NCBI GenBank assembly: GCA_964016885.1
Contig: OZ024763.1
Location: 14,136,001 to 14,200,000, forward strand
DNA length: 64,000 nt
Reading direction: 5' to 3'
Source of the DNA: Eledone cirrhosa
Lineage: Eukaryota
Positions within the stretch are counted from its first letter, which is position 1. The number at the start of each line of letters is the position of its first letter. Made by a program: the position numbers and the translations under genes. The notes under the pieces are model-generated. The model was not told the DNA's origin. It saw nothing but the letters and a program-made list of their open reading frames with translations, and searched no databases. Of this stretch, positions 1-45,626 are shown in pieces.

Positions 1-295
1 AAGATTTATCTCCTCTAAATTTACAAAAGTTCACATTTCTTTCACAAGATAGATCCTTAAATAATTATAGTGTTTTCTGTTTTCTTCTTCTCTTGGTTGC
101 TTCATGAGCCTCACCGTTTTTGCGGATGTCGGTTGACAATTTTCTCAGTGGTATCATACATATTCATCTAGAGTTTTAAATTTTTCAGCAATTAGCTAGG
201 GAACAGAATGTTTTATTATTTCTATTATCCGTCTCCCTCTTTTGCTTCAACATGGTTAACCATATTTCAATTCATATTCATACATATTCACAATT
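1..295 (-). mobile_element. CR1-clade LINE remnant cut by the window edge
   Basis: Paralog of 6848-7160. Confidence 0.7.
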
Positions 296-1254
296 CTTCT
301 GTGAGGGGTATAAGAAGCTCGTTTTTTGCTCCACATTCGATACCAAATCATGCTTCCTTTTTATAACTTCGTTGTACAAATATAATAATTAAAGTATATA
401 TAAGCAATGTATATATATATAGATAGCTTCTTATTAACTCTTTCCCGAAACATTTATTTCTTCAAAATAAGGTAAGACATATCCCGAATAATATTGTAAG
501 GTGTCTCAATAATTATTTCATTTCAATCAATTTTTCATTTCAGTTTTCTTTAGAAATATCTTGGCGTTGAAGATTTGTCCTTCTCATAGTAATTAGCTTG
601 TCTCAAAATTGTTCGCAGTGTTTCCATGTTTAGTGTCACACACTATCGTTAATTCTAATGTAATAAATGTTACTTTTAAAAGAGTGAAGCTCTCAATTTT
701 TTCTTTCTTTTGTATATTGATATCTAATGAATGACAAATGTATGTTATGTGATAGGAGAAAACACACACAGCCTTCTTCCCTCGCTATAGAAGGCTAACT
801 GACAATGTCGTTCGTAGGAGTAACAAGTCACCTCTTACTGCCTTTTATATACCATGTGAACTGGAAAGATTTGCCAAGTATGGATACACTCTCTCCTTAT
901 CAATATTGTCCGAGTCCGAGGACATTTTCTCTCTGGTTAAGGAGTGAGAAGAAATATTAGGGATCAATCTCTAGCAATAATTTAATTAAATTATATTTAA
1001 CCAAAGCTGTTATGTCGTGGTTGTTGTTATATTTTATAGTCGTGGTTTCAATGTTTATCAGGGGTTGTAGAATTAGTTTTATCAAATTATTATCAAACAA
1101 AAATGATGTATATATTGTCGTTGTACGTTGAAATCACATATATAGATTTATATACACACCAAGGATGGAGGGAAGACGGAATTGAAAACCATTATTGCTG
1201 AGCACAACATTGCAGGATCAAATATAACACACACACACATATATATATATAATC

Positions 1255-2047
1255 AGGTATGACCATTGATGAATGTCCCTGCAGATCATCAGGTTGTAGG
1301 ATGAAATCAACCCTAGAGAAATGATAAATTATATGAAGGTATATTTTATGGAAGCTCGAGAAGAATAAAAATGAAAGTGAACCATTTTGAATTGTTAATA
1401 TGATTGGGAAAGACATGGAGGCCACTACATCAATTTTTCTTTTAAATAGAAAGTAGGTTTATAAATTTTAATTTTGATAGTATTTTTGTAGTTGTCTCGG
1501 TAGTCTATTGGTAGGTGTTGGGACAGTGGTGATGCTGGTCTGGGGTTCAATCTCAGTCAGGAATCTCTCGAGAAATTTAATTTTTTTTAATTTTTCATAA
1601 AATGAACGAAAAATAGAGGTTGCAGGAATCTGACTGAGGTCGAACCCCAGACCAGCACCTCCATCACCTCTAATACTTACCACTAGTCTACGGAGGCGGT
1701 TATAAAAACTAACTGAAAATTAATATTTATAAACCTACTTTTTCAATTTTTTATAAAAACAAAATTTCTGTACAAGGTTTTCATGTACACCTGACAGAGA
1801 TCGAACCCCTAATCAATATCACCACTGTCTCTAATGTCTACCACCAGACCACTGAGACGGTTATGAAATCGCAGTGAAAATTAATATTTATAAAACTACA
1901 TTTTGTTCGGTTGAAAACTCGATGTAGTGGCATTCATGGCTTTTAAAGGACGTCCTTGAATTCATAAAGTAAATCTAGACTTTATTTCTCATTGCTCTAG
2001 GCTTGATTTGAACCTACAACAACTCCGTCTGCAATAATGTCATACCT
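1255..2047. repeat. Long imperfect inverted repeat, hairpin A (right inner arm duplicated at ~1625-1745 and ~1790-1905)
   Basis: Termini aggtatgac...gtcatacct. Inner left gatgctggtctggggttcaatctcagtcag pairs with ctgactgaggtcgaaccccagaccagcacc. Confidence 0.88.
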
Positions 2048-3250
2048 CATTCCAGCTTAGTACGTCGTACCCGTAAATTGTTAAACGTGGTTCCTATATA
2101 TACATGCAAGTCAGATTTGAACCTACAATGCTGTGCTTAATTTCTATTAATAAGTGTGTTTTATAAAAGAAAGTAAAGAAACAATTTAATGAAAGTAAAA
2201 AATTTATTTTATTCAGGAATGTTTTTATTTTATTTTATGTATTCACTTCATTAACTGCTGAATAGTTCTCTTGTTTTTGTTTGTTCTTACCATTGTTTAC
2301 TGTAAATGGTGACTGTGATGAGACTGGATTATTACCAAGTTTTACTGGATGATGGCATTTCCTTATTGTATTATTTTGTTGTCAGTGGACATCTCTCTAA
2401 ATACCTGGAATAAACATATGGTGTGTCTTTTACGTAACATTTCATTTAATATCTGATGTTCCAATGGATTACTTTTAAAATAAAACCAATAAACAGCACA
2501 GGTAGACTCCATCAAAAGAGACCACAGAGATGAGGTACGAATAATCTAAAATTAATTTTTAAAAAAAGACAATGTTTAAAGAAAGACAAACATTAAAAAA
2601 ATATTTCCAACAAACACGTAAAGACAAAGACAATCACATCCACAATTTAATATCTGAAGATCAACATTTTTCACGATATAAATAAAACTAAATATGTAAA
2701 GTTAAGTGACCTCTCATTTATTTGCTCTAACTTTATTTTACTAATCTGTATTCTGTAGACATATATTTTCCTTGGTGTACATTACGATTTCGTTGATGAA
2801 AGTTTTCACTCGTCTTTAGATCTTTATTTCTTATAAAAGTTATAATACTCACCTCCTCTCATTAGATCTCTATTTTACTTCTGGAATACTGTATTAACAT
2901 TTATATTTTCATCTCGATATTATTAAGTATTAAGGTTGCCATGTATTACAATACAGTATATAAACAAGGGAATATGAGGAGGGGTAATCATTTAAAAACA
3001 GCTAACCGCACACTCTGTGTATTTAGATTACACCAGGGTGTCCCATGGGCGATTTCATATATACATACACACATATATATACAAGTTATTGATTACAGAG
3101 TCGGGCTAGATCGATACAAAACGAACCTTAAGTTGATGAATAGCGAAACGCGCGCCGCGCCACGAATCAATAAACGTAATGAATGTGTACCCATTCGTCC
3201 TTATTTTATTATATATATATATTTTAATATATATATATATATATATATCT

Positions 3251-3301
<51 letters not shown>

Positions 3302-4229
3302 TAATTTATTTATTTCAACCTGGAGTTTCGACCGATAGATAGTATTAGCAATTGGAAAGACCAGTGGAAACATTGTTTCGTCGGTCCGATCTGACGAAGG
3401 TCGATCGACTGTCTATATATGTATATACATACACATACATTAATATTTACTCACTTCTATGTAAATATATATACATATTAAAAACACATACCATATACCA
3501 GCTTAAAAACGACTGACTAACCATCAGGACACATGCTTGCTCTTGTTAAAATTTCACAGAGATACTTATGAAAACCGAACTTGCAACGCCACGTACACTT
3601 ACATACACACACCTGTACATATACAGACGTATAGAAAAGGTATGACTTATATAGGTACATCAAAGTTAATGTTCCACTATAGCACCATTCGAGGTAGATA
3701 AAACGAAGTACCAGTGTAGTACTGGAGTCGATTCTTCTTCTATATCTCTTTCTTACTTCCTTTCTCCTACTTTCTCTCCTTCTCTGGTAAATATCTCCTG
3801 TGATCAGATCTAGGGTAGAGATGGGATCAGTCAGCTTTTAAAGAATACCCAAGACACCCCGAATATCAACGTGGGATCACCAAGACTCCCTCGCAAGCTA
3901 TACATCCCTACATACATAGCAACATCAGACAGATCCTTTATGTAGATCACTTTTACTCGATGATGGAAGACAAGTTTTCAGTGAGTCAGAAAGGAATATT
4001 TGCGATATGAAGGGAGAACCTCTCTGAATAAATATTAGATAGTTAAGATGCTACGTAAAGCAGGCGGCGACAACATCGAGGACCAGAGATGCCATGTGGA
4101 AATAGACATCCACATATAAATATACAAAGATGGGGGGACCTTATCATCATAGACACTTGGGCTTATGAATACACAAATATATATTTATATACATACATAC
4201 ATACATATATATACATGGGGGAGGGGGGG

Positions 4230-4416
4230 GGCTCCTGCAGGACTAGAACGGTTTCATTCGGAAGAAATCAAGGGCTTTCCTGATGATTTTTTCCGAATGA
4301 AACAGTTCTAGTCCTGTAGAAGCCATTTCTATATTAAATATTATTTATTAAGTATTTATAATCTGCTATGTAATGAGTACCTTACTTACTGTGGTTACCG
4401 CCGATTGAACCCGGGA
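4230..4416. mobile_element. Short repeat with a ~95-bp palindrome containing ctgatga...gaaa (PLE-terminus-like)
   Basis: ctgcaggactagaacggtttcattcgga pairs with tccgaatgaaacagttctagtcctgtag. An independent copy in the opposite orientation lies at 32693-32878, with paralogs at ~19663, ~43554 and ~59013. Confidence 0.6.
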
Positions 4417-4933
4417 TAAACATATATATATATACGGGTGCACAGGTGTACGGTGTCCTCAAGTTAACACCAAGGATTACGCTCGATGTCCCGTCACACA
4501 TCACTACATCTTCGAGTAAATGTTGATTAGTAAATAAACCGTGTATCTCACATGTAAGAGGAAAACTATAGCAAGTGTTGAGGATAAGAGACGTGTGAAA
4601 ATAATAATAATAATAATAATAGTGTTACAATTATTAATGGTAGTAGTTGTAATAATAAAGTGAGGGGGGACAACATTATTATAAATAGTTATGTACACAC
4701 AAGCTTACACAGGTACACATTCGTACACGTATTTACACAAACGTTTATAAATAAAAGACGAAGCTGATAAAAAGAACATATATTACCGTATCGCGTTTGG
4801 AACGATACACTTGACGTTGAGTTCTTGAATCTGATCCCATCACCGGTTGCTGATACCATTATTGCACACACAACACAAGTTTAAAGAGCTGCCTGTTTAG
4901 AAACAATATTTCCAGGCCACCATCTACTCACTA

Positions 4934-5711
4934 AGGTATGACAGCTGAAGGACATCACTGGATATCAGCTGGTCGTTGGATGAAATAAACCTAGTGATAA
5001 GAATAAAAGTCATGATATATTTTCTGAAAACTCGAGAAAAGTAAAAACCATGGCGACTTGTTTGTGGTATTAAAAAGACTGAGAAAGCCATGAACACCAC
5101 CACGTCAATTAAGCTTCGAAAATAGAAAGTAGGTTTATATATATTAATTTTCAGTATATTTTTATATCCGTCTCGTTGGCCTATTGGTAGGTGTTAGAGA
5201 CGGTGAAGATCGAGGTTTGGGGTTCAACCTTAGCCAGGATCTATATAAAATAAGGGGGTTTTACTAATTTTTTTCAGCTTTTTAAAAATGTAAAAAAGTA
5301 GATAAAAATTTTTTTTCATTTTACCATAGATTTTTTTACGTTTGCATTGAAAAAAGCTGAAAAAAATTAGTAAAACCCCCTTATTTTATATAGATCGTGG
5401 CCAAGATCGAAACCCAGACCAGGATCTCCACCGTCTCTCATACCTCCCACTAGGCTACAAAGACAGCTTCAGAATAATATTAAAAATTAATATTTATAAA
5501 CATACTTTTGATTTTGGAAGATTAATTGAAGTGGTGGCGTTCATGCCTTTCTTAGTGTTGCTGTGATTAGAAAGGGTCGACTTTGTCTTTCATAATTCAG
5601 GCTCTTTCATGAAGTAAATATTCATTTTATTTCTTAACGCCCTAGTATTGATTTGAACCTACAATTACTTCGTCTGCAATAATGTTCACTAATTTCAAAT
5701 CTGCCATACCT
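4934..5711. repeat. Long imperfect inverted repeat, hairpin B
   Basis: Termini aggtatgacag...ctgccatacct, with a perfect 46-bp inner inverted repeat at 5238-5283 / 5351-5396. Confidence 0.92.
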
Positions 5712-6460
5712 AAATCCTGTTGCGACTTACAAATAAATTGTTAAATGTCACTTTTATATATTTACCAATGTGAGATTGGAACCTACAGTTATGTGCTTTG
5801 CAGTAATGTCCCGTAACTCAAACTAGATTGCGCTAAGCTTATATATTTCTTTCGTCCGAACAACATAATGGTTTCGATCCCAGTTCGCTACTGGTACAAG
5901 AAATAATTTAAAGAAATTCTATATCCCCAGCTAAATATTGAACTCCTAACGACATTTTATGTTACTTAATACCAATAACCCTGTTACACACTGAACATCT
6001 AAGCCCTGAACACACATTTATATTTATGACTCAATTTCCAATTTTTTTAATGATATTACACCACCTTTGTGTTCTAGGTGAAAATCCTGTCGATATTAAT
6101 TTACAATTTTATAACTTTAGAGAAGAAAAATAGAGTACCAGTCATTTTATGGGTTCAATTTAATCGATCGGCTTCACCCCGTCAATCACTTGACATTTGC
6201 CAAACAAAAACACACAAACAGTATATATATATATATATATATATAATACGACAAATTAAAATAAATTACGTGTTTAATAAAGAAAAAAATTATTGAAAGT
6301 AAGAAATTATAATTATTTAGTAATAATATTTTTATTCTTTGTTTTCACTGCATTAACTGCTGAGTGTGACTTAATTTTCTTACTATTTTCTACTGTAAAT
6401 GGCGGCTGAGTCGTTATTGGAGTATTACTAAGGTTTACTGGATGATGTTTGCTTATTGCT

Positions 6461-6538
6461 TTATTTTACAAAAAGTACCAGTAATGCACTGGGTAATTGC
6501 TGGACTTGTGCCTAAAGTAGAAACAATTATTTTACAAA
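6461..6538 (+). mobile_element. 5'-truncated SINE tail with a 12-bp target-site duplication
   Basis: aagtaccagtaatgcactgggtaattgctggacttgtgcctaaagtagaaacaa is flanked by ttattttacaaa on both sides (6461-6472, 6527-6538). The paralogous site near 10297 is empty. Duplicate at ~45839-45916. Confidence 0.85.
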
Positions 6539-6604
6539 CAGTGGACATCGGAATATCCCTCTATATACCTGGGATAAATGTAAGGAGCATTGTTATGTTA
6601 TACA

Positions 6605-7160
6605 TAGTACAATGGTCATCTCTTCTTATATTTACATTTTCTTCCCCAATTCTGTATTTTGAAGTACTTTCATTATTTTAAATATTTCTATCATGTCACT
6701 CGTTTGATTAATCTCCTCCAAAGTTGTAATTCTATGTGTTTGTCCTTGGTATAGTGAACTAATGTTGATATTTTCAAGTCTTGGTATTTATATGGAATAG
6801 TGTACTAATATTTAAATAGTCTTTATGTTTTTGTCTTGTCTCCCCTAAGATTTATCTCCTCTAAATTTACAAAAGTTTCTTATCTTCCTTCACAAGACAG
6901 ATCCCTAAATAATTCTAGTGTCTTCTGTTTTCTCCTCTCTGGGTTGCTTCAAGAGCCTCACCGTTTCTTCGGAGGTCAGTTGACCATGGCCCAAAACAAT
7001 ATTCTCAGTGGTATCACACATATTCATCTAGAGTTTTAGATATTTCAGTATTTAACTAGGAAAAAGAATGTTTTATTATTTCTATTATCCGTCTCCCTGT
7101 TTTGCTTCAACATGGTTAGTCATCTTTCAATTCATATTCATACATATTCACAATTCTTCT
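6605..7160 (-). mobile_element. CR1-clade LINE remnant with the LEE..LRGD segment tandemly duplicated
   Basis: Minus strand reads ITTLEEINQTSDMIEIFKIMK at ~6670-6735 and NLEEINLRGDK at ~6835-6867. Confidence 0.75.
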
Positions 7161-7514
7161 GTGAGGGGTATAAGAAGCTCGTTTGATGATCGAACCTGAC
7201 TGAAAATCGTAAGGTCCTCAGATACGTCTTGATTCTACGAAGCAGATTTTCCTATTTCCATACATTTATATACACACCAAGGATGGAAGACAGATCTCTG
7301 TATATTTTCATGAAATTAGATTCACCGTTAACATGGAGTGACGACGAAACTGTAGTTATGTCCAAGCCAGTTGATACAATTCTAAGTTAGTTGATATATT
7401 TTGAAGTATTGCGAGATTTACTGAGTTCTTTTCTTATTTCCATAGCATGATCAAATTCACTACAATGCTTTCTGCTCACTTTTACTCAGCATCACAAATA
7501 TTTCGTTCTTCATC

Positions 7515-8045
7515 TGTCATATCTTTTTATCATCATTTACTGTTGTGTCGTCTACTCCATCATTTAAACTATTCAATTCACTAATATCTCTTTGAGAAAT
7601 ATATATTTTCTGATGTCTTTAGAGCATTGTATCTTATAAACAGTATAATGGTGTCCTCTTCTTACATTTTCTTCTGTAATTTCAAGTGCTTTCATTATCT
7701 TAAATATTTCTGTCGTGTCTCCCCTTAGCTTTATCTCCTCCAAAGTCGTAATTCCTGGCTTTTTACATCTTTCTTCTCAAGAATTCTGGTATTTCATGCT
7801 TTTTTCTTCTCTGGATTCCTTCAATAGTTTCTCTCTCCTTTCGGAAGTCGGGTGACCATACCTGCAAATAATATTCTAAGTAGTATCACACATATCATTT
7901 ATCTAGAGTTTTAATATATCTGTATTTAGGTAGGTAAAGTAATATTTCATCATTCCTATAATCCGACTTGGTGTTGTGGTCTTTTCCTGTGAGATGGTTA
8001 GCTACCTTTAAATTCAAATTGATACATATTCCACATTTGTTGGGG
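7515..8045 (-). mobile_element. CR1-clade LINE 3' remnant (module C1)
   Basis: Paralog of 10905-11440. ORF 7895..8125 contains GICINLNLKVANHLT. Confidence 0.8.
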
Positions 8046-8754
8046 GTGGGTGAAACAAAAAAACACAATTTTACATCAGTATTCGATGTTAAAACTTGCT
8101 GGCGTCTTATACGTTCAAGATACAAATATGATAATTAAAGTATATACTAGCCATGTATATGTATCACCCTATTTTTAACTCTTCTTCAAAATGTATTCCG
8201 AAAAATCCTGTATGAGGTCTCTGTAAGTGTTCGATTTTCAATAGATTGTATTGCCGTTGAAGATGCAATCATTTCTCCTTATCAATAAACAATTTGTTAT
8301 ACAATTGTTGCTTCGTCCATTTTAAGTTTAGTTTCACAAACTATCGTTAATTCAAGATTTTGCTCTAATATAATAAATTATACTTTTAAAAGACTGACAT
8401 TCTCACATTCATTCTTTATCTTCTATATTATCTAATGAATAAAACAATGTATGTGAGCTGTAGAAATAACACGACCTTCTTTCACCGCTGCAGATAGCAA
8501 ACTGGCAGTGTGTTTAGCTGACAACGGTGAACGTCACGTGTTTAGTGTTAAATCCCAACAAAGTACCATTTATATACCGTGTTAACTGGAAAGACGGACC
8601 AAATAAGGATACAATCTGCTCTCCTTATCAATATTCTCTGAGATTGAGGACCTTGGTCCCTGAATAAGCAGTGAGATAAAGTGATAGGGTTGAATCTCTA
8701 GCAAGAATTACAGTAGGTTATTTTTAACGAAGGACATCAATAAATTTAATAGTG

Positions 8755-9560
8755 AGGTATGACAGTTGAAGAAGGCCACTGCAGATTATCGGGTTGTAGG
8801 ATGAAATGAACCTTAGAGAAAGTAAGTGAAGATATATTTTCTGAAATTGCCAGAAGAATAAAAATCCAATGTCGACCCTCTCGAAGTATTGATAATGCTG
8901 AGAAGGGCATGAATGCCACAACATCTATTATGCTTGGAAATACAAGGTAGTTTTCTGAAAGCTCCAGATTAATAAAATACAAGGTCGGTCGTTGGTAGTG
9001 CGAATAACATGGAGAAAGACATGAAGGCCACCACATCAAGTTTGCTTGGATATAGAAAAGTAGCTTTATAAATATAAATGTTCATAGTACTTTTGTGGCA
9101 GTCTCTGTGGGTATGGTATGTGATAGAGACGGTGAAGATCCTAGTCTCTGGTTCAATCTCGGCCAGGAACTACACTAACGTTTTTCATTTTACTAGAGAT
9201 AAAATGAAAAATTTTTGAATTTTTTCATTAAGACACCTCTGGTCTTGGCCAAGATTGAACCCGACACCAGGATCTTCACCGTCTCTCATACCTTCCACCA
9301 GGCCACCGAAACTTGCTACAAAAAGTTATGGAAAATTAATATTTATAAATCTACTTTACTATTTTCAAGCAAAATTGATGTGGTGGCGTTCATGCCTTAC
9401 TCAATGTTATAAATACTAAAAAGGGTCGACTTTGTCTTTCATCCTCCTGGGTCTTTGATAAATTAAATCTTCACTTTGTTTCTTATCGCTCTACGGTTGA
9501 TTTGAACCTACAATGTCCCCGTCTACAATAATATTTACTAACTTTAAATCTATCATACCT
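8755..9560. repeat. Long imperfect inverted repeat, hairpin C1
   Basis: gagacggtgaagatcct pairs with aggatcttcaccgtctc, and gccaccacatcaa with ttgatgtggtggc. Termini aggtatga...tcatacct. Confidence 0.92.
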
Positions 9561-10904
9561 GGTTTGTGTGTGTGTGAAATATTCCCACCTCGTACAATAA
9601 GCCCGTAAATTGTTAAACCTGATTTCTATATAGATAATATATGTAGCAGTGTAAGATCTGAACCTACAATGATATGTTTTGCAGTAATTTTACACAATTT
9701 CAACTAAATAGCGATATGTATATGTTTTTCGTTTCTTAAAAATAAAAGAAATTCTATATCCGCAGCTAAATATTGAACTCCTGACAGCACCACAAACTAC
9801 ATTAAATATTTAACTACAAAGTCTCACACGACTTTGTAACTAAATGATAAAATAATAACCTTAATTTTTAATTGATATTACTTCACCTTTTTGTGTTCTC
9901 ATCTCGGTGAAAATCTGGCCCTGATTAATTTAACATTTTTATTTTTGGAGAGATAAAATATAGTACCAGTCACATACTGGAACCAATTTAAATGATCGAA
10001 TTCTCCCCGTAAATTTCTGCCTCAGTTACAAACAAAGAGGGTGTATCTGTATGTGTAAATATATATATATACATATATATTAAAGTATGTGTTAGCAATA
10101 AATAAATGAAACAAATTAAATAATAAAAGTAAGACATTTTTATTCAGTAGTTTTATTTTTATTATGATTTTCAATACATTAACTGCCCAGTGTGCCTTTT
10201 GTTTTTGTTTCTTCTTATTTTCTATTGCAAATGGCGGCTACGGCGAAACTGGATTATTACCAAGGTTTACTGGATGTTGTCTTTTGCTTCTTGGATTACT
10301 TTACAAACTTGAGACATCAGGATATTTACCGCAATACCCGAGATAAACATAAGGTCTGTCTTTTACGCAATATTTCGCTTTAAAGACTTGTGTTGACTTG
10401 ATCAAATTTGACCTGTCTACGAGACAGAGATGCTATTTCAAAACAAACCACACAGACCAACCATGAATAATCTAAAATTAGTTTTACAAAAGATAATCCA
10501 TCTTTAAAGAGACAAATATTTAAAAATTGACGTTCAAAGGAACACTCGATGGCAGAAAGAATCTCAGCCACAATTTAATGTCTGAAGTTAGACATTTTTC
10601 ACGACATAAATATAGTTTAATGCCCCTCCTCTCATATCCGATTCCTTTCCTCAAATCCTCCAATAATACATATTTTATAGAGATATAATGTTGTGTTTTG
10701 TTTATATTTTCACCTTTTCTAGTAATTCGTAGTTTTAGAATTGTCATTCCGATCATGTAGAAAATCTATGACATTATCCTGATTGATATTATACGTTTTC
10801 AATATGAGATTGGAAGGCATAGCAAGTTCAAATTCACGACAATGCTTTCCGCTCACTTTTACTCAGCATCACAAATATTTCAATCTATTCATTCGTTCTT
10901 CATC

Positions 10905-11440
10905 TGTCATATCTTTTTATAATCATTTACTGTTGTGTCGTCTACTCCATCATTTAAACTATTCAATTCACTAATATCTCTTTGAGAAATATATATTTTC
11001 TGATGTCTTTAGAGCATTGTATCTTATAAACAGTATAATGGTGTCCTCTTCTTACATTTTCTTCTGATTTTCAAGTCCTTTCATTATCATAAATATTTCT
11101 GTCGTGTCTCCCCTTAGTTTTATCTCCTCCAAAGTTGTAATTCCTAGATTTTTACACCTTTCTTGTCAAGACAGATTTGTTAATAATTCTGGTATTTCAT
11201 GCTTCTTTCTTCTCTGGATTCCTTCAATAGCTTCTCCCTCCTTTCGGAAGTCGGGTGACCATACCTGCAAATAATATTCTAAGTAGTATCACACATATCA
11301 TTTATCTAGAGTTTCAGTATTTCTGTATGTTGGTAGGTATAGTAATATTTTATCATTCCTATAATCCGACTTGGTGTTGTGGGTTTTTTTATGTGAGATG
11401 GTTAGTTAACCTTAAATTCAAATTGTTACATATTCCGATT
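10905..11440 (-). mobile_element. Degraded CR1-clade LINE ORF2 3' remnant
   Basis: Manual minus-strand translation across stops and frameshifts gives SRIIGMIKYY...LEYYLQVWSPDFRKEGEAIEGIQRR...QERCKNLGITTLEEIKLRGD...CSKDIRKY. This matches the CR1/L3 C-terminal pattern ANRILGMIKR...LEYCVQVWSP...IEKVQRR...LEERRLRGD...DIRKYFFSQRVVNEWNSL. Confidence 0.85.
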
Positions 11441-12193
11441 TTGTTGGGGTGGGTGAAACAAGAGACACATTTTTACATAAAAATTCGATGTTAAAACCTG
11501 CTGGCGTCTTATACATCCAAGATACGAATATGATAATTATATATGTTTGTACTAGCCATGTATAAGTATATCCCTATTTATAACTCTTCCTCAAAACAAT
11601 ATATTCCGAAAAATGCCGTATGATGTCTCCGTGAGTGTTCCATTTCAATCAATATCTCATTTCGATTTTCAATAGATTGTGTGGCCCTTGAAGATGCAAT
11701 CATTTCTCCTTATAATAATTAATTTGTTTTACAATGTTCGTATTGTTGCTTCGTCCATTTTACGTTTAGTGTCACAAACTATCGTTAATTCAAGATTTTG
11801 CTCTAATATAATAAACTATACTTTTAAAAGACTGACATTCTCATATTCATTCTATCTCTTCTATATAGTTATCTAACCGATAAAAGAATGTATGTGGTAT
11901 GTGAGAGGTAGAAATAACACGACCTTCTTTCACCGCTGCAGATAGCAAACTGGCAGTGTGTTTAGCTGACAACGGTGAACATCACGTGTTTAGCGTTAAG
12001 TCCCAACATAGTGCCATTTTTATACCGGGTTAACTGGAAAGTCGGACCAAATAAGGATACAATCTTCTGCCCTTATCAACATTCTCCGATCTTGGTCCCT
12101 GAATAAATAGTGAGATAAAGTGATAGGGTTGAATCTCTATCAAGAATTACAGTAGGTTATTTTTAACGAAGGACATCAATAAATTTAATAGTG

Positions 12194-13001
12194 AGGTATG
12201 ACAGTTGAAGAAGGCCACTGCAGATTATCGGGTTGTAGGATGAAATGAACCTTAGAGAAAGTAAGTGAAGATATATTTTCTGAAATTGCCAGAAGAATAA
12301 AAATCCCATGTCGACCCTTTGGAAGTATTGATAATGCTGAAAAAGGCATGAATGCCACAACATCTATTATGCTTGGAAATACAAAGTGGGTTTCTGAAAG
12401 CTCCAGAGGAATAAAATACAAGGTCGGTCGTTGGTAGTGCGAATAACATAGAAAAAGACATGAAGGCCACCACATCAAGTTTGCTTGGATATAGAAAAGT
12501 AGCTTTATAAATATAAATGTTCATAGTACTTTTGTGGCAGTCTCTGTGGGCTAATGGTATGTGATAGAGACGGTGAAGATCCTGGTCTCTGGTTCAATCT
12601 CGACCAGGAACTACACTAACGTTTTTCATTTTACTAGAGATAAAATAAAAAAACTTTTAATTTTTTCACTAAGACCCATCTAGTCCTGGCCAAGATTGAA
12701 CCCGACACCAGGATCTTCACCGTCTCCCATACCTTCCACAAGGCCACCGAAACTTGCTACAAAAAGTGATTGAAAATTAATATTTATAAACCTACTTTAC
12801 TATTTTCAAGCAAAATTGATGTGGTGGCGTTCATGCCTTACTCAATGTTATAAATACTAAAAGGGGTCGACTCTGTCTTTCATCCTCCTGGGTCTTTGAT
12901 AAATTAAATCTTCACTTTGTTTCTTATCGCTCTACGGTTGATTTGAACCTACAATGTCCCCGTCTACAATAATATTTACTAACTTTAAATCTATCATACC
13001 T
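12194..13001. repeat. Long imperfect inverted repeat, hairpin C2
   Basis: Same arms as C1. The left arm has an internal ~113 bp tandem duplication (~12277-12390 / 12391-12503). Confidence 0.92.
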
Positions 13002-14704
13002 GGTTGGTGTGTGTGTGTGTGTGTGAAATATTCCCACCTCGTACAATACGCCCGTAAATTGTTAAACCTGATTTCTATATAGATAATATATGTAGCAGTG
13101 TAAGATCTGAACCTACAATGATATGTTTTGCAGTAATTTTACACAATTTCAACTAAATAGCGATATGTATATGTTTTTCGTTTCTTAAAAATAAAAGAAA
13201 TTCTATATCCGCAGCTAAATATTGAACTCCTGACAGCACCACAAACTACATTAAATATTTAACTACCAAGTCTCACACGACTTTGTAACTAAATGATAAA
13301 ATAATAACACCTAAATTTTTAATTGATATTACTTCACCTTTTTGTGTTCTCATCTCGGTGAAAATCTGGCCCTGATTAATTTAACATTTTTATTTTTGGA
13401 GAGATAAAATATAGTACCAGTCACATAGTGGGATCAATTTAAACGATCGAATTCTCACCGCAAATGTCTGACTTCTGCCTCAGTTACAAACAAAGAGAGT
13501 TTATCTATGTGTGTATATATATATATATATATTAGTTAAAGTATGTGTTAGCAATAAATAAATGAAAAAAATTAAATAATGACAGTAAGACATTTTTATT
13601 CAGTAGTTTTATTTTTATTGTGATTTTCAATACATTAACTGTCCAGTGTGGCCTTTTGTTTTTGTTTCTGCTTATATTCTATTGCAAATGGCGGCTACGG
13701 CGAAACTGGATTACCAAGGTTTACTGGATGTTGTCTTTTGCTTTGTGGATTACTTTACAAACTGGAGACATCAGGATATCTACCGCAATACCCGAGATAA
13801 ACATAAGGTGTGTCTTTTACGCAATATTTCGTTTTACAGACATGTTCGACTTGATCAAATTTGACCTGTCTATGAGACAGAGATTCTATTTCAAAACAAA
13901 CCACACAGACCAACCACGAATAATCTAACATTAGTTTTTCAAAAGATAATCCATCTTTAAAGAGAGACAAATATTTAAAAATTGACGTTCAAAGGAACAC
14001 TCGATAGCAGAAAGAATCTCAGCCGCAATTTAATGTCTGAAGTGAGACATTTTTCACGACATAAATATAGTTTCATGCCCCTCCTCTCACATCTGACTCG
14101 TTTTCTTAAAACTTACTTCTAATAATACATATTTTATAGACATATACTTTCGAAGGTAAACATTATGTTTTTGTGTTGTGTTTTGTAATTTTTCAATTCG
14201 TAGTTTTAGAAATGACATTCCGATTATGTAGAAAATCTATGACATTATTCTGATTGATATTATACTTTATCAACACGAGATTGGAAGACAGGCATAATTA
14301 ACGAATTTTCAAGTTTATATTTAGCCGACTCCAAACACAGTACGTAAGTTTTTAGTACACGAAATCTTTAACGAACTTAACTACATACAATAATGAAAGT
14401 ATTTGAAGTAAATTAATGAGTTTCACCGACATTATCGTAATCTACATCATGGAAGACGGATCTCTGTATATTTTCATGTAAAATATATTCACCGTGAACA
14501 AATTCATGGAGTGACGACTAAACTGTAGTTATGTCCAAGCCAATTGATACCATTCTAAGTTAGTTGATATATTTTGAAGCGTTGCGAGATTTACTGAGTT
14601 CTTTTCTTATTGCCATAGCATGATCAAATTCACTACAATGCTTTCTGCTCACTTTTACTCAGCATCACAAATATTATTTAATCTATTCATTCGTTCTTCA
14701 TCTG

Positions 14705-15200
14705 TCATATATTTTTATCATCATTTACTGTTGTGTCGTCTACTCCATCATTTAAACTATTCCATTCACTAATATCTCTTTGAGAAATATATATTTTCTG
14801 ATGTCTTTAGAGCATTGTATCTTATAAACAGTATAATGGTATCCTATTCTTAGATTTACATTTTCTTCCGTAATTTCAAGTCCTTCCATCATCTTAAATA
14901 TTTCTATCATGTCTCCCCTTTGTTTTATCTCTTTCTAAGTTTTTACATCTTTATTCTCAAGACAGATTTCTTAATTCTTTTGTTTTATTTTTTGTTCTTC
15001 TCTGGATTCTTTCAATATTTTCTGTCGTGCGTCCATGTCCCTACGGAATACTCTACGTGGTGTCGCTCATATCATTCATCGATAATTTAAAATTTGTTTG
15101 CATTTCGCTAGGTAAATTATTATTCCTATCGTCTCACTTGCTACTTTTTGCCTTTAACATGGTTAGCCACCTTTCAATTACAATATACATATTCGAAATA
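14705..15200 (-). mobile_element. CR1-clade LINE 3' remnant (module D)
   Basis: Minus strand reads RIGYHYTVYKIQCSKDIRKY then, after a frameshift, SQRDISEWNSLNDGV. Confidence 0.8.
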
Positions 15201-15244
15201 TATTTTTTTGTGGGGTGGGGGAATAAGGGGTACTTTTCTACCCG

Positions 15245-15275
<31 letters not shown>

Positions 15276-15315
15276 ACCGTCTGCCCTTTCCTTAAAGGTA
15301 CGAATATATTAAACA

Positions 15316-15349
<34 letters not shown>

Positions 15350-15992
15350 TCCATGAACAAGGATAGCTGCATATTTACACTTCCCCCAATCATTTTGTCT
15401 TGAAAATAAACATGTCTTAAAATCTATGTGTGTTCCATTTCAATTAATTTCTTATTTCGTGTTTCAGTACATTTGTTCTTAAAACTAAGGGGGTCTTACA
15501 TCCCAAAAAATATTGTAAGATGTCTCCATAGATTGACATTCTCAATTTAATTCTTTCTCTTGTGTATTGTTCTCTAATGGATAACATATGTATGTTGTTC
15601 ATTAGAGGTAGAAGTAACACGACCTTCCCTCATCGCTGCACAGATCTAACTGGCAGTGTGTTTAGCATGAGTGCTGGTAAGTATTCGACAACTGTGAACA
15701 TCAGCTGTGAAGTCAGAACAAACTGCCTTTATATAGGGTGTTAATTGGAAAGACTAAACAGTGAGATAAAGTGACGAGGTTCAATCTCTACCAAGAATTA
15801 CACAAGGTTATTTTAAACCAGAAATTATTATGTTGTTGCTGTAAATGTGTAGTCAGGGTTTCAATCCTTAGCAGGGTTTGTAGAGTTACATTTATGTAAT
15901 TATTAACAAATAAAAACAGATTTATATAGCGATGTTGTACGTTCAAATAAAACACACACACATATATATATAAATAAATATTTATATGTTAT

Positions 15993-16184
15993 ATTGTTTC
16001 TAATTTTGGCACAAGGCCAGCAATTATCCCAGTGTATTACTGGTACTTTATTTTATTGACCCTGTAAAGATGAAAGGCAAAGTTAACCTCGGCGGGATTT
16101 GAACTCAGAATGGCAAGGGCCGTAACTCTATGCTGGGAAGCATAGCGTTTGAACCTCTACCGATTCTGCTAATACACCGCCCCT
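15993..16184 (-). mobile_element. tRNA-derived SINE (octopod-type family)
   Basis: Reverse complement of the family at 36672 and 38451. It has a B-box (gagttcaaatcc) and core gaggttaactttgcctttcatc. Confidence 0.88.
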
Positions 16185-16225
16185 GCCAAGACACCGCCCT
16201 ATGTAGTGTTAATAAGACGGAACCA

Positions 16226-16590
16226 GCATGAATGTAACCACATCTATTTAGCTTGCTAATAGAAAGTAGTTTCATATATATTAAATTTCAATTAGTTCTG
16301 TAGCTGTTATTGTTACGGTGGCCTAGTGGGGGTTATTAGAGACGGTGGAGGACCTGGTTTGGTTTTCAATGAAGACATACATTAAGGGGGTCTTACTTTT
16401 CCATTTTATAAGAGAAAAAATGTAAGATTTAGTGAGATTATATCCTGATTCAGATCGAACTCACGACCAGGAACGGATTCACCTCTAATACATACCACTG
16501 GGTCACCAAAACGGATGTAAAACCTCACTGAAAATGAATATATATCAACCTACTTTCAATATGGAACCAATATTGTTGCAGATGTTCGGT
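16226..16590. repeat. Shorter, diverged inverted repeat, hairpin D
   Basis: gaaagtagtttcatatatattaaatttca pairs with tgaaaatgaatatatatcaacctactttc, and ggtggcctagtgg with ccactgggtcacc. Confidence 0.75.
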
Positions 16591-16684
16591 TTTCTCTTAG
16601 CTTTCATAAATTGAATGTTGAATTAGCTTCTCATCGATATAGGGAAGATTGGAACATTCAATAATTCCGTATATATATATACAT

Positions 16685-16721
<37 letters not shown>

Positions 16722-17196
16722 AAACAAAGAAATAAGTCACCAAGTTCAACAGTTTATAAATTATTTATTTCATCAACACTTGTTTCATTGCTATTACATG
16801 TTACACATCTTTAGAAAGACATCGTCAGGAACAATTCTAAACATAACATTGGAAGTCTACAATATAAAATAAATCAATTTTGAGGTTGAATATATATTTC
16901 AATGCCATATTGTTGTTTTATCAACTGATAGAATTTTCAACACGTAATATATATATATATATATATATACGTAAGCATGTATGTTTATATATATATATAT
17001 GTATGTGTTTATATATATGTGTGTATATATATATACATGTGCGTGTATATGGCAATAGGGTGCAAGAGTAACACACTATTGAACTCCCGAACTAGGGTGC
17101 CACAGTATGGCACTTTAGAGCTTCAGTGCTGCACTATGGTATTTAGTAGATTTAACTAAACTTAGTACTGACTTAGTACTGAGTTAGTAGAGTTAA

Positions 17197-17373
17197 AAGC
17201 GAATACAAGCAGCCAAAATGGGGTTCCTCGAAAGGGTCTTTGGAGTAACGTTACTTGATAAAGTGTGTAGCTCAGAGATCAGAGAGTCACTCCAGGTAGA
17301 GCTGCTACTTCTCCCAACTGAGAGATCACAGCTCTGATACTATGGACATGTGGTTAGAATGTCTCAGGAAAGA
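17197..17373 (+). mobile_element. RTE-clade (Expander/Rex3-like) LINE fragment
   Basis: Translates [58 protein letters not shown], matching the RTE post-RT motif IQAAEMSFLRRV...IERSQLRWFGHLVRM. Confidence 0.85.
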
Positions 17374-17374
17374 A

Positions 17375-17671
17375 TATGTATATATTTATGTATGTATGTA
17401 TATATATATCTATGTATATATGTCTACATATACATATATATACATAGATATATATATATATACATATAGATAGACAGATAGATATATATATATAGATATA
17501 TATATATATACATATAGATAGACAGATAGATATATATATATAGATATAGATATATATATATATATAGATATATATATAGATTAGATATAGATATATATAT
17601 AGATATATATATAGATTAGATATATATATATATATATATATAGATTAGATATATATATATATATATATATT

Positions 17672-17738
<67 letters not shown>

Positions 17739-17908: not shown

Positions 17909-17934
17909 TATGACCGTGAAATATGTGTGAGGTA

Positions 17935-20554
17935 AAGTAAATCTAGACTTTATTTCTCATTGCTCTAGGCTTGATTTGAACCTACAACAACTCCGTCTGC
18001 AATAATGTCATACCTCATTCCAGCGTAAATTGTTAAACGTGGTTCCTATATATATACATGCAAGTAAGATTTGAACCTACAATGCTGTGCTTAATTCCTA
18101 TTAATAAATGTGTTTTATAAAAGAAAGTAAAGAAACAATTTAATGAAAGTAAAATATTTATTTTATTCAGGAATTTATTTTTTTATTTTATGTATTCACT
18201 TCATTAACTGCTGAATAGTTCTTGTTTTTGTTTTTGTTTGTTCTTACCATTGTTTACTGTAAACGGTGAGTGTTACGAGACTGGATTATTACAAAGTTTT
18301 ACTGGATGATGGCATTTTCTTATTGTATTATTTTGTTGTCAGTGGACATCTCTCTAAATACCTGGAATAAACATATGGTGTGTCTTTTACGTAACATTTC
18401 ATTTAATATCTGATGTTCCAATGGATTACTTTTAAAATAAAACCAATAAACAGGACAGGGAGACTCCATGATGAGGTACGAATAATCTAAAATTAATTTT
18501 AAAAAGAAGACAATGTTTAAAGAAAGACAAACAATCACATCCACAATTTAATATCTGAATATCAACATTTTTCACGATATAAATATGTAAAGTTAAGAGA
18601 CCTCTCATTTATTTGCTCTAACTTTATTTTACTAATCTATTCTGTAGACTTATATTTTCGTTGGTGTACATTACGATTTCGTTGATGAAATTTTCTTTCG
18701 TCTTTAGATCTATATTTTACTTCTGGAATACTGTATTAACAATTATATCACTTGTCTTTAGATCTTTATTTCTTATAAAAGTCACCTCTTCCCATTATAT
18801 TTTCATATATATATATTTGAAAAAAGGAAAAGAATGACTTGACTTGTAGTTCTAAACAATTTTATTTAGAACTACAAATGAAGTCATTCTTTTCCTTTTT
18901 TTAAATATATCTGACTGTACCAAGGATTTCACACACACACACACACACACACACATATTTCTACCTGGAGTTTCGACCGATAGATAGTATTAGCAATTAG
19001 AAAGACCATTTTCATTTATATATACCCATACATTCATATTTACTCACTTCTATGTAAAATATACATATATATATATATATATATATATTAAAAGCACATA
19101 CCATCATAATAACGATTGACTACTCATCAGGACACATGCTTGCTCATGTAAAAATTCTCAGAGACACTTACGAAAACCGAACTTGCAACGCCAGGTACAC
19201 TTACATACACATATATAGGTACATCAAAGTTTAGGTTTCGCTCTTGTACCATTCGAGGAAGTTAGAAACAAGTACCAGTGTAGTACTGGGTCGATTCTTC
19301 TCAATTCCTTTCTCTCACTCTCTGTAAGAGATCTGGGTGTGGAGATGGGATCTGTCAACTTTTACAAAGTACCCTAGACACCCTGAATGTCAATGTCGGG
19401 CCTTTAGGACTCCCTCACAAGTTATAGGTCGCTACATAAGACAGATTCTTTAGATCTCTTTTACTCGATGATGCAAGACAAGTTTTCAGTGAGTCAGAAA
19501 GTGATATGAAGGGATAAATATTAGATAGTTAAGATGCTACGTAAAGCGGGCGGTGACAACATCGAGGAGCAGATGTGCCATGTGGAAATAGACATCGACA
19601 TATAAATATACAAAGATGGGGGGGGACCTTATCATCATAGACAATTGGTCTTATGTGTGTGTGGCTTCTGCAGGACTAGAACGGTTTCATTCGAAAGAAA
19701 TCAAGGGCTTTCCTGATGATATTTTCCGAATGAAACAGTTCTAGTCCCGTAGAAGACATTTCTATATGAAATATTTATACTCTGATATATATTGAGTACC
19801 TTACTTACTGTGGCGTTCATGCCTTTCTTAGTGTTGCTGTTATTAGAAAGGGTCGACTTTGTCTTTCATAATTCAGGCTCTTTCATGAAGTAAATATTCA
19901 TTTTATTTCTTAACGCCCTAGTGTTGATTTGAACCTACAATGACTTCGTCTGCAATAATGTTCACTAATTTCAAATCTGCCATACCTAAATCCTGTGTGC
20001 GACTTACAAATAAATTGCTAAACGTCACTTTTATCAATGTAAGATTGGAACCTACAGTGATGTGCTTTGCAGTAATGTCCCGTAACTCGAACTAGATTGA
20101 GCTAAGCTTGTATATTTCTTTCGTCCGAATAACATAATGGTTTCGATCCCAGTTCGCTACTGGTACAAGAAATAATTTTTAGAAATTCTATATCCCCAGC
20201 TAAATATTGAACTCCTAACGACATTTTATGTTACTTAATACCAAAGCCCTGAACACACATTTATATTTATAACTCAATTTCTAATTTTTAAATGATATTA
20301 CACCACCTTTGTGTTTTCGGTGGATATTAATTTACAATTTTATAGCAGAAAAATAGAGTACCAGTCATTTTATAGGTTCAATTTAATCGATCGGCTTCTC
20401 CCCGTCAATCACTTGACAAACAAAGACACACAAACAGTATATATATATGATACGACAAATTTGAAATAAATTACGTGTTTAAGAAAAAGAATTATTGAAT
20501 GTAAGTAATAATATTTTTATTGTTTGTTTTCACTGCATTAACTGCTGAGTGTGA
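17935..20554. repeat. Deleted, diverged paralog of ~1968-6368 (right hairpin arms only)
   Basis: 17935-18780 matches 1968-2900, 18960-19810 matches 3320-4390, and 19810-20554 matches 5535-6368. Confidence 0.88.
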
Positions 20555-21851
20555 TGGAGAGAGAGGGATGGAGAGAGGGGTGGAGAGAGAGGGATGGAGA
20601 GAGAGAGGGATGGAGAGAGAGAGAAAGAGAAAGAGATAGAGAGAGAGAGGGTGAATGGAGAGAGGGGTGGATAGAGAGAGAGTTGGATGGATAGAGAGAG
20701 GGAGAGAGATGGATGGAGAGAGGGGTGGAGAGAGAGAGTGAGGGATGGAGAGAGAGGGATGGATGGAAGGAGAGAGTGAGGGATGGAAGGAGAGAGTGAG
20801 GGATGGAAGGAGAGAGTGAGGGATGGAGAGATAGTGGAGAGTGAGGAATGGAGAGAGAGTGAGGAATGGAAGGAGAGAGAGTGAGGAATGGAAAGAGAGA
20901 GAGGAATGGAAAGAGAGAGGGGTGGATGGAGAGAGAGAGAGAGAGATGGAAAGAGAGGGGTGGATGGAAAGAGTGAGGGATGGATGGAAGGAGAGAGGAA
21001 TGGATAGAGAGAGAGAGAGGGAGAGAGGGAGAAGGATGGATGGAAGGAGAGAGGGAGAAGGATGGATGGAAGGAGAGAGGGAGAAGGATGGAAAGAGAGA
21101 TGGATGGAGAGGGATGGATGGAAAGAGAGGGGGATGGATGGAGAGAGAGAGGGGTGGATGGAGAGAGAGAGAGAGGGATGGATGGAAGGAGAGAGAGAGA
21201 GGAATGGAGAGTGAGGAATGGGGAGAGAGTTGGATGGATAGAGAGAGAGAGGGATGGATGGAGAGAGAGAGGGAGTTGGATGGATAGAGAGAGGGAGAAA
21301 GATGAATGGAGAGAGAGAGGGGTGGAGAGAGGGATGGATGGAGAGAGAGAGATGGATGGAGAGAGGGATGGAGAGAGAGGGATGGAAGGATAGAGAGAGG
21401 GGTGGATAGAGAGAGAGAGGGATGGAAGGATAGAGAGAGATGGAAGGATAGAGAGAGGGATGGATGGATAGAGAGAGAAAGGGGTGGATAGAAGGAGAGA
21501 GTGAGGAATGGAGAGAGAGAGAGAGTAGGATGGATGGATAGAGAGGGATGGATAGAGATGGAAGGATGGAGAGATGAAAGGATAGAGAGAGATGAAAGGA
21601 TAGAGAGAGATGAAAGGATGGAGCGAGGGATGGAGAGAGAGAGGGATGGAGAGAGAGAGAGAGGGAGAATGATGGATGGAGAGAGGGATGGATAGGAGAG
21701 AGGGAGAATGATGGATGGAGAGAGGGATGGATGGAAGGAGAGAGGGATGGATGGAAGGAGAGAGAGATGGAAGGATAGAGAGAGAGAGGGATGGATCGAG
21801 AGAGGGAGAATGATGAATGGAGAGAGAGAGGGATGGATGTAGAGAGGGATG

Positions 21852-21898
<47 letters not shown>

Positions 21899-27800: not shown

Positions 27801-28180
27801 GGAGAGAGAGAGAGAGAGATGGATGTAGAGAGAGAGAGGGTTGGATGGATAGAGAGAGAGGGTTGGATGGATAGAGAGAGAGAGATGGAAGGATAGAGAG
27901 AGAGAGATGGATGAGAGAGAGAGATGGATGAGAGAGAGAGGTGGATGGAAGGAGAGAGTGAGGGATGGAAGGAGGTGGATGGAAGGAGAGAGTGAGGGAT
28001 GGAAGGAGAGGGATGGAAGGAGAGAGAGAGGGATGGATGGAAGGAGAGAGAGTGGTGGATGGAAGGAGAGAGAGAGAGATGGATGGAGAGAGATGGATGG
28101 AAGGAGAGAGAGAGGGGTATGGTTGAGAGGGAGAGAGAGGGTTATGGATGGAGAGAGGGAGAGGGATGGAGAGAGAGAAA
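20553..28180. repeat. 7.6 kb GA/GGAT/GGAA purine-strand low-complexity block
   Basis: The plus strand is almost free of C. Recurrent words include gagagagggatggatggaag, gggagaatgatgaatgg and gagtgaggaatgg. Confidence 0.97.
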
Positions 28181-28309
28181 TAGAAAAACATGTAAGACTT
28201 ACCTATTTGTGATGTCAAATAAAGTTTGACAGTACTTTTAGATTTTACAATTATAGGAATGACTCGACATGATAACTACACAAGATAGAAAATATACAGA
28301 AAGTAATAT

Positions 28310-28770: not shown

Positions 28771-29107
28771 TGCTGTGTTAATGAGTGGACTGGAGTAAAA
28801 AGGAGTCACACAATCTTTAAAAGACCCTAAATTAACTTGCCCTAATTACTATATATACTCAAATAAAAAAGGGATTGGCTTATAATTGAGAAATAGGACA
28901 GAATCCAAACCCCATTTATAAGCCATGGTGGCTAATCAACAGACGACAGTTTTGAAATTCTCATGAGTGGAGAATATATTTATGAAGTTTTAAGTGTCAT
29001 TTAGAGTATAGTTTTTATTTCACTTCTTTATGTAATGAGTTACCATTTTCTGATTGATTTCAAGGTCATATTCATTAAAATCATCCAACATAATAGCAAA
29101 TACAAAT

Positions 29108-32036: not shown

Positions 32037-32389
32037 AATATTATAGCACCTCATTTACATATAATTTTTAAGTTGGTGAAATCAAAATATTGACCTCGAA
32101 GACAAGTCCTCCTCCCTATTTTACCATCAATATTTTGTCTCATTTATCGACATATATACAAGTATATACAATATTTACTTTACATAAATTATCAAAAGAT
32201 TTGCTATTTATGTAAACAGAATTATCCGAAACTAAATCTAATAAAATTTCTTTTAATTAAATTTAAGAAAAAAAAAATAGTTTGAAAGAAAACTAGAGAT
32301 CACTGCTCCGACCAAGGGTAGGAGTCACTGATTTTGACCAAGGTGTAGGGGTCACGACATACAAAATAAACAGTACTCACTGTAAATGA

Positions 32390-32538
32390 GGTTAGCATTT
32401 GGAAAGGCTTCCAGCTGTTAAAGCGAAGCCAAGATCAGTTCTGTATGAGCAAGACATGGTCACCTGACCTGGCTTTGCCCACAATAGGACAACTCGTCTA
32501 ACCCATGCAAGCGTAGAAAAATGGACATTAAATTGTGA
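32390..32538 (+). mobile_element. RTE-type SINE/LINE 3' tail fragment
   Basis: ggaaaggcttccagctgttaaag...cgtctaacccatgcaagcgtagaaaaatggacattaaa resembles the tail at 33305-33340. Confidence 0.6.
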
Positions 32539-32692: not shown

Positions 32693-32885
32693 TCTCGGGT
32701 TCAATCGAGGGGGAAACCACAGTAGGTAAAGTACTCAATACATTAGTAGAGTATATACAAAATATAATATAGAAATAGCTTCTACAGGACTAGGAATATT
32801 TCATTCGAAGGAAATCATTAGGAAAGCCCCGATTTCCTTGAAATGAAAGTTCTAGTCCTGTAGAAGTCATTTCTATATCATTCTG

Positions 32886-33345
32886 TTGACAAAGGGTTTC
32901 TCCCTACGAACGAAAATCCAGTTATATGATGCCTGTGTGAGATGGGCAGCAACTGCGGAGGATATGCGACGGCTGGAGAGAAATGAATCAAGCATGCTCC
33001 GTTGGATGTGCAATGTCAATGTGTGTGAACGACCAAGTATAGACGAGTTGAAAAAGAAACTGGGAATAAGAGGGATAAGTTGTGGTGTGCAGGAGAGAAG
33101 ACTGCGATGGTATGGACATGTGATGCGCATGGAGGATGACCGCTGGGTAAAGAAGTGCCAAGAAATCCCAGTAGAAGGAAGATGCAGTAGAGGAAGACCA
33201 CGAAAATCATGGGCAGGAGTGGTGAGAGCTGACCTCAGATCGCTGAAACTCACAGATGACGACGAAGGACAGTGACGATGGAGAGATGCTGTGCTGAATA
33301 GGACCCGTCCCACCCTTGCAAGCAGGAAAACTCAGACGTATGAAA
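32886..33345 (+). mobile_element. RTE-clade LINE 3' end (ORF2 C-terminus plus 3' UTR)
   Basis: ORF 32886..33275 has LYDACVR...MLRWMCNV...RRLRWYGHVMRM...VEGRCSRGRPRKSW, diagnostic of RTE ORF2. It is 5'-truncated and internally deleted. Confidence 0.92.
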
Positions 33346-35592: not shown

Positions 35593-35637
<45 letters not shown>

Positions 35638-35679
35638 AGTGAGTTTTATTATTTATGGAAATATAATAATATCCCCCAC

Positions 35680-35720
<41 letters not shown>

Positions 35721-35723
<3 letters not shown>

Positions 35724-42578: not shown

Positions 42579-42623
<45 letters not shown>

Positions 42624-45544: not shown

Positions 45545-45626
<82 letters not shown>

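Follow-up and report, generated by a model that had tools for sequence, protein, structure and literature searches.

Positions 1,255–16,590 of a 64,000-nt stretch of Eledone cirrhosa DNA (contig OZ024763.1; the whole stretch is called the window below) hold five long inverted repeats, A–E, in which every arm ends, facing inward, in a tRNA-sized unit of 72 nt. These units sit in cassettes that share one layout and a fixed spacing in 11 copies and lack an anticodon stem, and the array arose by an old inversion followed by tandem duplication and by duplication of a 39-kb unit. Judging from the sequence, we put at roughly 0.55 the probability that the cassettes are, or until recently were, RNA polymerase III (Pol III) genes for separate two-stem-loop RNAs of ~90–110 nt. 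A first-pass annotation had placed five inverted repeats here, 3.4–4.0 kb apart, and they are present; it had read them as a tandemly amplified locus that produces double-stranded RNA (dsRNA), a source of hairpin RNA (hpRNA) and endogenous small interfering RNAs (endo-siRNAs). The tandem amplification was right. The dsRNA reading is unsupported, since co-variation is absent from the outer arms, G.U pairs in the long duplex show no strand bias and the Pol III signals point inward.

A common cassette with Pol III signals

The cassettes form one convergent pair per hairpin, with three copies in A, which makes 11 per 39-kb unit:

1409–1584, plus strand: cassette A-left, with upstream block, TATA at 1460, tRNA-like body starting at 1494 (boxes A and B at +8 and +51) and an oligo-T run at 1581
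1610–1743, minus strand: cassette A-right inner, a tandem duplicate with TATA, body (+1 = 1697) and T-run, without the upstream block
1761–1943, minus strand: cassette A-right outer (+1 = 1858)
5085–5262, plus strand: cassette B-left (+1 = 5170); local fold z −4.5
5372–5549, minus strand: cassette B-right (+1 = 5464)
9016–9184, plus strand: cassette C-left (+1 = 9101); 2-nt deletion in box A
9208–9397, minus strand: cassette C-right (+1 = 9312)
12455–12625, plus strand: cassette D-left (+1 = 12540)
12650–12838, minus strand: cassette D-right (+1 = 12753)
16222–16400, plus strand: cassette E-left (+1 = 16312), decayed; box B with 5 mismatches, internal T4
16417–16590, minus strand: cassette E-right (+1 = 16512), decayed; box B with 3 mismatches, internal T4

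Boxes A and B begin at +8 and +51/52, respectively, and the spacer between them is 32–33 nt in 11/11 copies. Measured against the published box consensus (PMC7279448), 8/11 copies have two mismatches or fewer in total. TATAWAW is found at −34/−35 in 9/9 copies of A–D and at −37/−32 in the E copies (background 2.7% per 8 positions), a further conserved block lies upstream at −85 to −62, and a run of at least 5 T begins between +81 and +102 in 10/11 copies (background 12% per 40 nt). The entire layout is found at 8 loci of the unit and in 0/100 shuffles. Conserved Pol III signals are strand-specific and point inward on both strands, predicted transcripts are 87–108 nt in length, and no poly-A or microsatellite tail was found after the bodies. 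The tandem duplication in the right arm of A spans TATA, body and terminator and amounts to one extra gene-like copy, while both E copies, by their sequences, look dead.

A model used to seek extra cassettes in the window recovered only the 22 training-type copies, the next match scoring 10.7 bits, and a search of metagenome contigs with the body pattern gave 0 matches. The box A and box B offsets are matched by the head of a young tRNA-derived short interspersed nuclear element (SINE) at 35049, which scores 22.5 bits with the Rfam tRNA model, below the gathering score. A second box-B-like word was seen on the minus strand at 2014, 2123, 5659, 5783, 9508 and 9664; these words lie ~110–160 nt apart, in or beyond the outer right arms, and may be remnants of older tRNA-like sequences or, alternatively, a distal promoter element.

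Predicted structure of the 72-nt unit

Folding of the inward strand predicts two stem-loops for the unit, one with box A and the other with box B. With ribosum scoring, this consensus fold has z −3.8 across 9 arms and −5.6 across 7 arms, and two adjacent upstream windows gave none; the 7-arm tests, like the block identities given below, exclude E. The signal consists mostly of one-sided changes to G.U. Pairing was kept in 43/85 changed cells on the inward strand and 17/85 on the other strand, and neutral simulations from a structured ancestor kept it in 28 changed cells compared with 44 observed, only 2/250 being as extreme. Under these models, selection on the structure of the unit is suggested.

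Two words that the first-pass annotation had assigned to both arms of A, tgctggtctgggg and ctcagtcag, proved to be the two strands of the second stem inside one arm. They occur at 1533/1552 (+) and 1657/1638 (−), that is, in A-left and in the inner duplicate of A-right; the outer right-arm copy lacks them. A word presented as specific to C, tcct(g/a)gt, is also present in B-right, both D arms and E-right.

Conservation relative to a dead LINE remnant

The modules carry a co-duplicated remnant of a long interspersed nuclear element (LINE):

7523–8032, minus strand: dead 3′ remnant of LINE open reading frame 2 (ORF2; residues 726–909 of P0078), used as neutral yardstick

It is also found at 6838–7103, 10913–11383, 14711–15068 and before A, comprises only the last ~180 residues, and is 69–77% identical between modules. 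The minus-strand frame beside hairpin D, read through stops, matches 1376 proteins; the four longest matches carry endonuclease and RVT_1 domains, and one of them has many relatives from birds and turtles. We take the element to be CR1-like.

Same-side identity among the cassettes falls into blocks. It is 85% at −85 to −62, 57% in the next block, 85% at the TATA and 62% at −23 to −1; within the predicted transcript it is 80% in box A, 88% in box B, 71% in the rest of the body and 40% in the trailer. D-left was substituted for C-left in these values and in the comparisons of layout and of LINE blockiness. For invariant columns in box positions the count is 8/13 (p = 0.002). In active tRNA genes, the immediate flanks are reported to change fast (PMC6130373).

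An old inversion, later duplications and probable local conversion

Four of the inverted repeats are delimited as follows, with E at 16226–16590:

1255–2047, both strands: inverted repeat A, whole arms including the far-upstream flanks
4934–5711, both strands: inverted repeat B
8755–9560, both strands: inverted repeat C; its upstream flank is internally duplicated in the left arm
12194–13001, both strands: inverted repeat D, young sister of C

Their starts are 3679, 3821, 3439 and 4032 nt apart, and arm identity is 69% in A, 67% in B, 75% in C, 74% in D and 59% in E. When G.U is included, 81–84% of the aligned positions in hairpins A–D are pairable on the plus strand, and hairpin B folds with z = −17.8 on the plus strand and −26.6 on the minus strand (against 20 shuffles). 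G.U pairs in the long duplex number 80 vs 66 (p = 0.28), with no strand preference. Because C and D are 96–97% alike, there are only about four independent hairpins, and the D arms were excluded from the quartet, tree and simulation counts.

The first-pass annotation had proposed that the two arms of each hairpin co-vary, and a tree of the arms divides this claim in two. In the outer 110 columns, side-grouping sites outnumber hairpin-grouping sites by 9–12 to 0–2 per quartet; arms of the same side, left or right, cluster together, and the data reject the hairpin tree (p-AU 2e-5). The inversion therefore predates the duplication of the modules, and co-variation does not hold for this part. What remains is a modest hairpin-specific excess in the inner ~160 nt, where hairpin, side and cross sites number 45, 17 and 18 over six quartets that are not independent, and the true pairing of left with right arms comes first of 24, with the side tree unrejected (p-AU 0.17). 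Within-hairpin core identity (71.5% in A, 78.3% in B, 77.8% in C and 55.9% in E) is barely above some cross-hairpin values, such as 76.9% for B-left/C-right. Since within-hairpin identity in the cassette blocks is close to cross-hairpin identity, most of the similarity between inner arms reflects conserved elements and not maintenance of a duplex.

Local conversion probably accounts for part of the remainder. The longest perfect inverted tract is 46 nt in B, as compared with 9–20 nt in the other hairpins, and is likely a conversion tract:

5238–5396, both strands: perfect 46-nt inverted tract (5238–5283 / 5351–5396), which takes in the 3′ trailer and the T-run of each B cassette

Arm-to-arm gene conversion, which the first-pass annotation had offered as its alternative, fits both this tract and the modest inner excess. 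Hairpins C and D differ by 3.85% with 1 gap, and their flanks by 6.7% with 25 gaps (p = 0.003). A nearly identical stretch of 400 nt, at 9441–9840 and its equivalent in D (0.5% vs 6.7% in the flanks), covers the outer right arm and adjoining flank and is a possible conversion tract.

Three fragments in the window lack the body, each with its breakpoint inside an arm, which would fit palindrome fragility:

17933–18018, minus strand: truncated copy of the A outer right arm, without the tRNA-like body
19810–19987, minus strand: truncated copy of the B right arm, without TATA or body; junction found in contigs
38906–39112, plus strand: truncated copy of the B left arm, stopping at the TATA; junction found in contigs

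Comparison with known classes

Several established classes were tried and rejected. A tRNA gene does not suit, as anticodon stems have 3–5 pairs at best, at shifting positions and with differing triplets, and no anticodon is common to the copies. With default settings ARAGORN found 0 tRNAs in the units; at threshold 70 it called 9/11 (79/330 for shuffles), and at 85 it called 0/11. The arms gave no match to the Rfam tRNA model, and an Rfam scan of the 64 kb at gathering score (miRNA, vault, tRNA-Sec, signal recognition particle and others) returned 0 matches. A SINE is disfavored because the T-run directly follows the head, with no body or tail, and because the arms do not reach high copy number at ≥92% identity. 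Derivation of the arms from the window's two young SINEs was not significant (29/500 and 196/500 shuffles), and a foldback derived from LINE ORF2 was rejected at a joint score of 15.5, as compared with 16.0 for shuffles and with 145 vs 18 in the positive control.

Drosophila hpRNA endo-siRNA loci are long imperfect foldbacks with internal duplications. The arms resemble them in both respects but differ in having no G.U strand bias, outer arms that do not co-vary, and Pol III signals on both strands.

The closest likenesses are to small Pol III RNAs. Primate snaR (PMC3045588) comprises small structured, lineage-specific Pol III RNAs with an intragenic promoter and an oligo-U end, in tandem arrays spread by segmental duplication, much as is predicted here; it differs in its Alu/7SL monomer origin, its length of ~117 nt and its oligo-A tract, whereas the putative gene here is tRNA-sized and has an upstream TATA and convergent pairs. 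The genes for 4.5SI, 4.5SH, 7SL, vault and EBER RNAs (PMC7279448) have in common with the cassettes boxes A and B 30–40 bp apart and, upstream, an AT-rich box at ~30 nt along with other conserved sites; their boxes are TATA-like, whereas the cassettes keep a canonical TATAWAW. Tail-to-tail clusters of tRNA genes and pseudogenes (PMC2888827) share the 72-nt body, boxes at 8 and 52 and a downstream T-run. The cassette has partial acceptor-like pairing (4–7/7) relative to a tRNA, and differs in its predicted alternative two-stem-loop fold without an anticodon stem. Mollusc tRNA-derived SINEs, such as octopus OR2 (named in PMC4758252), share a tRNA-derived head with boxes A and B; compared by description only, the cassette differs from OR2-type SINEs in having no body or tail, and the arms are only weakly similar to the window's young SINE head (29/500 shuffles). 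Six short words gave no match in the tables of PMC9699675, and in a search of open papers we found no description of such a locus. The cassettes would work like known families of derived Pol III small RNAs that segmental duplication has amplified, and are a member of none of those tested.

Alternative explanations

A number of observations weigh against functional Pol III genes. The 11 copies share one ancestor, so that their layout counts as a single event, and the patterns and bins were in part chosen post hoc. Mean same-side identity is 0.687 for the cassette and 0.687 for the dead LINE, and the LINE and the spacers are also blocky (p = 0.007 and 0.0006), the LINE less so than the cassette. 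In the fold, z is −3.1 to −3.8 for the outward strand as well and ~−3 in some windows of the outer arms, left arms alone give a non-significant −0.7, default RNAalifold yields only −3.6 kcal/mol, and single copies fold at z ≤ −2 in only 4/11 cases. Covariation proper is weak, with 29–162/500 shuffles reaching the observed values, and the strictest null is matched by 16/250 simulations for 9 arms and 31/250 for 7 arms. Between the 39-kb units, bodies carry more substitutions than the rest (5/792 vs 21/16502, p = 0.006), although two of the five body differences match the state of hairpin D or of the opposite arm, as expected from conversion. Much of this, notably the equal identities, the weak covariation and the excess of body differences, suits the main rival, namely a silent relic: an old tRNA pseudogene or monomeric SINE head that gave rise to an inverted copy and was then multiplied passively in tandem duplications, its boxes and stems inherited and its shared variants produced by conversion. 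The decay of the E copies and the three body-less fragments are in keeping with such a history, and tRNA pseudogene clusters, tail-to-tail pairs included, are common (PMC2888827). We nonetheless regard a relic as the less likely of the two. A TATA at a fixed offset in 11/11 copies, next to bases that drop to ~60%, the concentration of invariant columns in the boxes, and retention of structure beyond neutral expectation in two of three nulls speak against it, as does the absence of a tail after the bodies and of high-copy arms at ≥92% identity. The contrast between the C and D hairpins and their flanks points the same way, but C-D conversion could also cause it.

The remaining alternatives make use of the long duplex. 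A long read-through transcript across an inverted repeat would form a 300-bp imperfect duplex open to ADAR hyper-editing, incidentally or in secondary use, and this would be compatible with Pol III genes. The folds are strong on both strands, editing in coleoids targets repeats and non-coding hairpins (PMC9068888, PMC9699675), and the unit has stretches on the minus strand that look exon-like by eye; against this, the G.U pairs of the long duplex are unbiased (80 vs 66), the outer arms do not co-vary, and a host gene was sought and none identified. As an explanation of the locus we find it improbable. We give still less weight, and very little, to the proposal of the first-pass annotation that a tandemly amplified hpRNA locus was selected for phased 21–22-nt endo-siRNAs. 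It draws on the pairable fraction of 81–84% in A–D and on the inner hairpin-specific excess, but pairing within hairpins hardly exceeds pairing across them and, for a mollusc host, DICER2 and siAGO are reported lost (PMC11114477) and Dicer-pair signatures low (PMC12479628).

The 39.3-kb unit and its surroundings

The window is AT-rich and contains microsatellites, SINE-like remnants and LINE remnants. Bases 1–17679 are repeated at 39329–57133 with 98.8% identity, so that the window holds ~1.6 copies of a 39.3-kb unit:

40583–55992, both strands: the five inverted repeats and their 11 cassettes a second time, in the following 39.3-kb unit

The ten hairpins of the first-pass annotation are thus correct as a count in the window, but represent five hairpins in two nearly identical copies. 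Contigs from three runs of one sample cover 30/30 bins of 3300–15200, and the junctions of the truncated copies at 19810 and 38906 are found in them, from which it follows that the sequence is no invention of the assembly; these contigs cannot span or confirm entire hairpins. The box A deletion of C-left is present neither in the second unit nor in the contigs of runs X2 and X3. A run X1 contig has a 50-nt loose end at 12769 that resembles a further diverged arm and hints, by its sequence, at another paralogous cassette outside the window. Word depth of single contigs is ~120–510 on the modules vs ~10–60 for most contigs at repeat junctions; this contrast hints at unit copies in the tens without fixing a copy number. 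Summed contig depth over the arms is ~100–1400 vs 3e5–8e5 in repeat-holding bins; by this measure, and at the 92% threshold only, the arms are not at high copy.

Other features of the unit were seen in passing. Its satellites are a purine-rich (GA) one of 7.6 kb at 20557–28178 and a minisatellite of 2.9 kb with an 18–24-nt repeat at 29104–32037. A palindromic element of ~95 nt at 4230–4324 recurs at 19662–19758 and 32778–32878, and its bin has a summed contig depth of ~3e5; it is therefore probably a high-copy repeat like a miniature inverted-repeat transposable element. Two young SINE copies lie head-to-head as an inverted repeat at 38344–38658 and are absent from the paralogous flank at 4675–4692. 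Further palindromes, 80–97% alike, are found at 18811–18910, 33821–33916, 35635–35768 and 35713–36472; the 39-kb unit is rich in inverted repeats. The minus-strand exon-like stretches, with splice-donor-like ends as judged by eye, are at 28190–28230, 32380–32450, 33430–33575 and 34360–34545; no protein match emerged for them, and none that was usable for the frames at 33.4 and 34.4 kb. A short ATG-initiated frame is locally conserved in the right flanks (10231–10383, 13688–13864, 2306–2413 and ~6397); it has lost 3 nt in frame in D, is interrupted by a stop in module B, has no Pfam match and resembles a YY1 site. An open frame at 32856–33275 is like the end of another LINE reverse transcriptase, presumably RTE-like, and has no Pfam match.

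A model for the cassettes and its implications

If the cassettes are Pol III genes, their boxes would be bound by TFIIIC and TFIIIB would assemble on the TATA; Pol III would start a few bases before +1 and terminate at the T-runs, in the loop common to both copies. The RNAs from the two sides would be sense paralogues, unable to pair with each other, and the long hairpin would be a side effect of the inversion, now and then evened out by conversion between arms. As to history, an inverted duplication of a ~330-nt cassette may have produced two convergent copies around a common T-rich loop. Tandem duplication of this pair, along with its flanks and the LINE remnant, would then have given modules A–E, later copied as part of a 39-kb unit, with inner tracts occasionally homogenised between arms. 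By analogy only, with snaR (PMC3045588) and the 4.5S RNAs, the product might act as a small RNA without decoding function, specific to its lineage and associated with protein or ribosomes.

A fuller picture can be offered tentatively, and we hold it with less assurance than the existence of Pol III genes itself. The cassettes may constitute a lineage-specific, tRNA-derived Pol III family that has lost the anticodon arm, folds into two stem-loops, keeps D- and T-loop residues, has a canonical TATA and an upstream element, and is arranged in convergent pairs that share a terminator loop, with 11 copies per 39-kb unit and probably hundreds per genome; it would be an invertebrate counterpart of snaR and 4.5S RNA. 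If so, a tRNA has been remodelled into a non-decoding RNA, with copies ranging from intact to dead within one array, and transcription past the terminator might also give rise to self-antisense RNA. With its start and stop sites predicted exactly, an amplified invertebrate family of this kind would be cheap to test. The locus also carries a caution, in that long genomic hairpins with apparently co-varying arms may be convergent gene pairs and not dsRNA loci.

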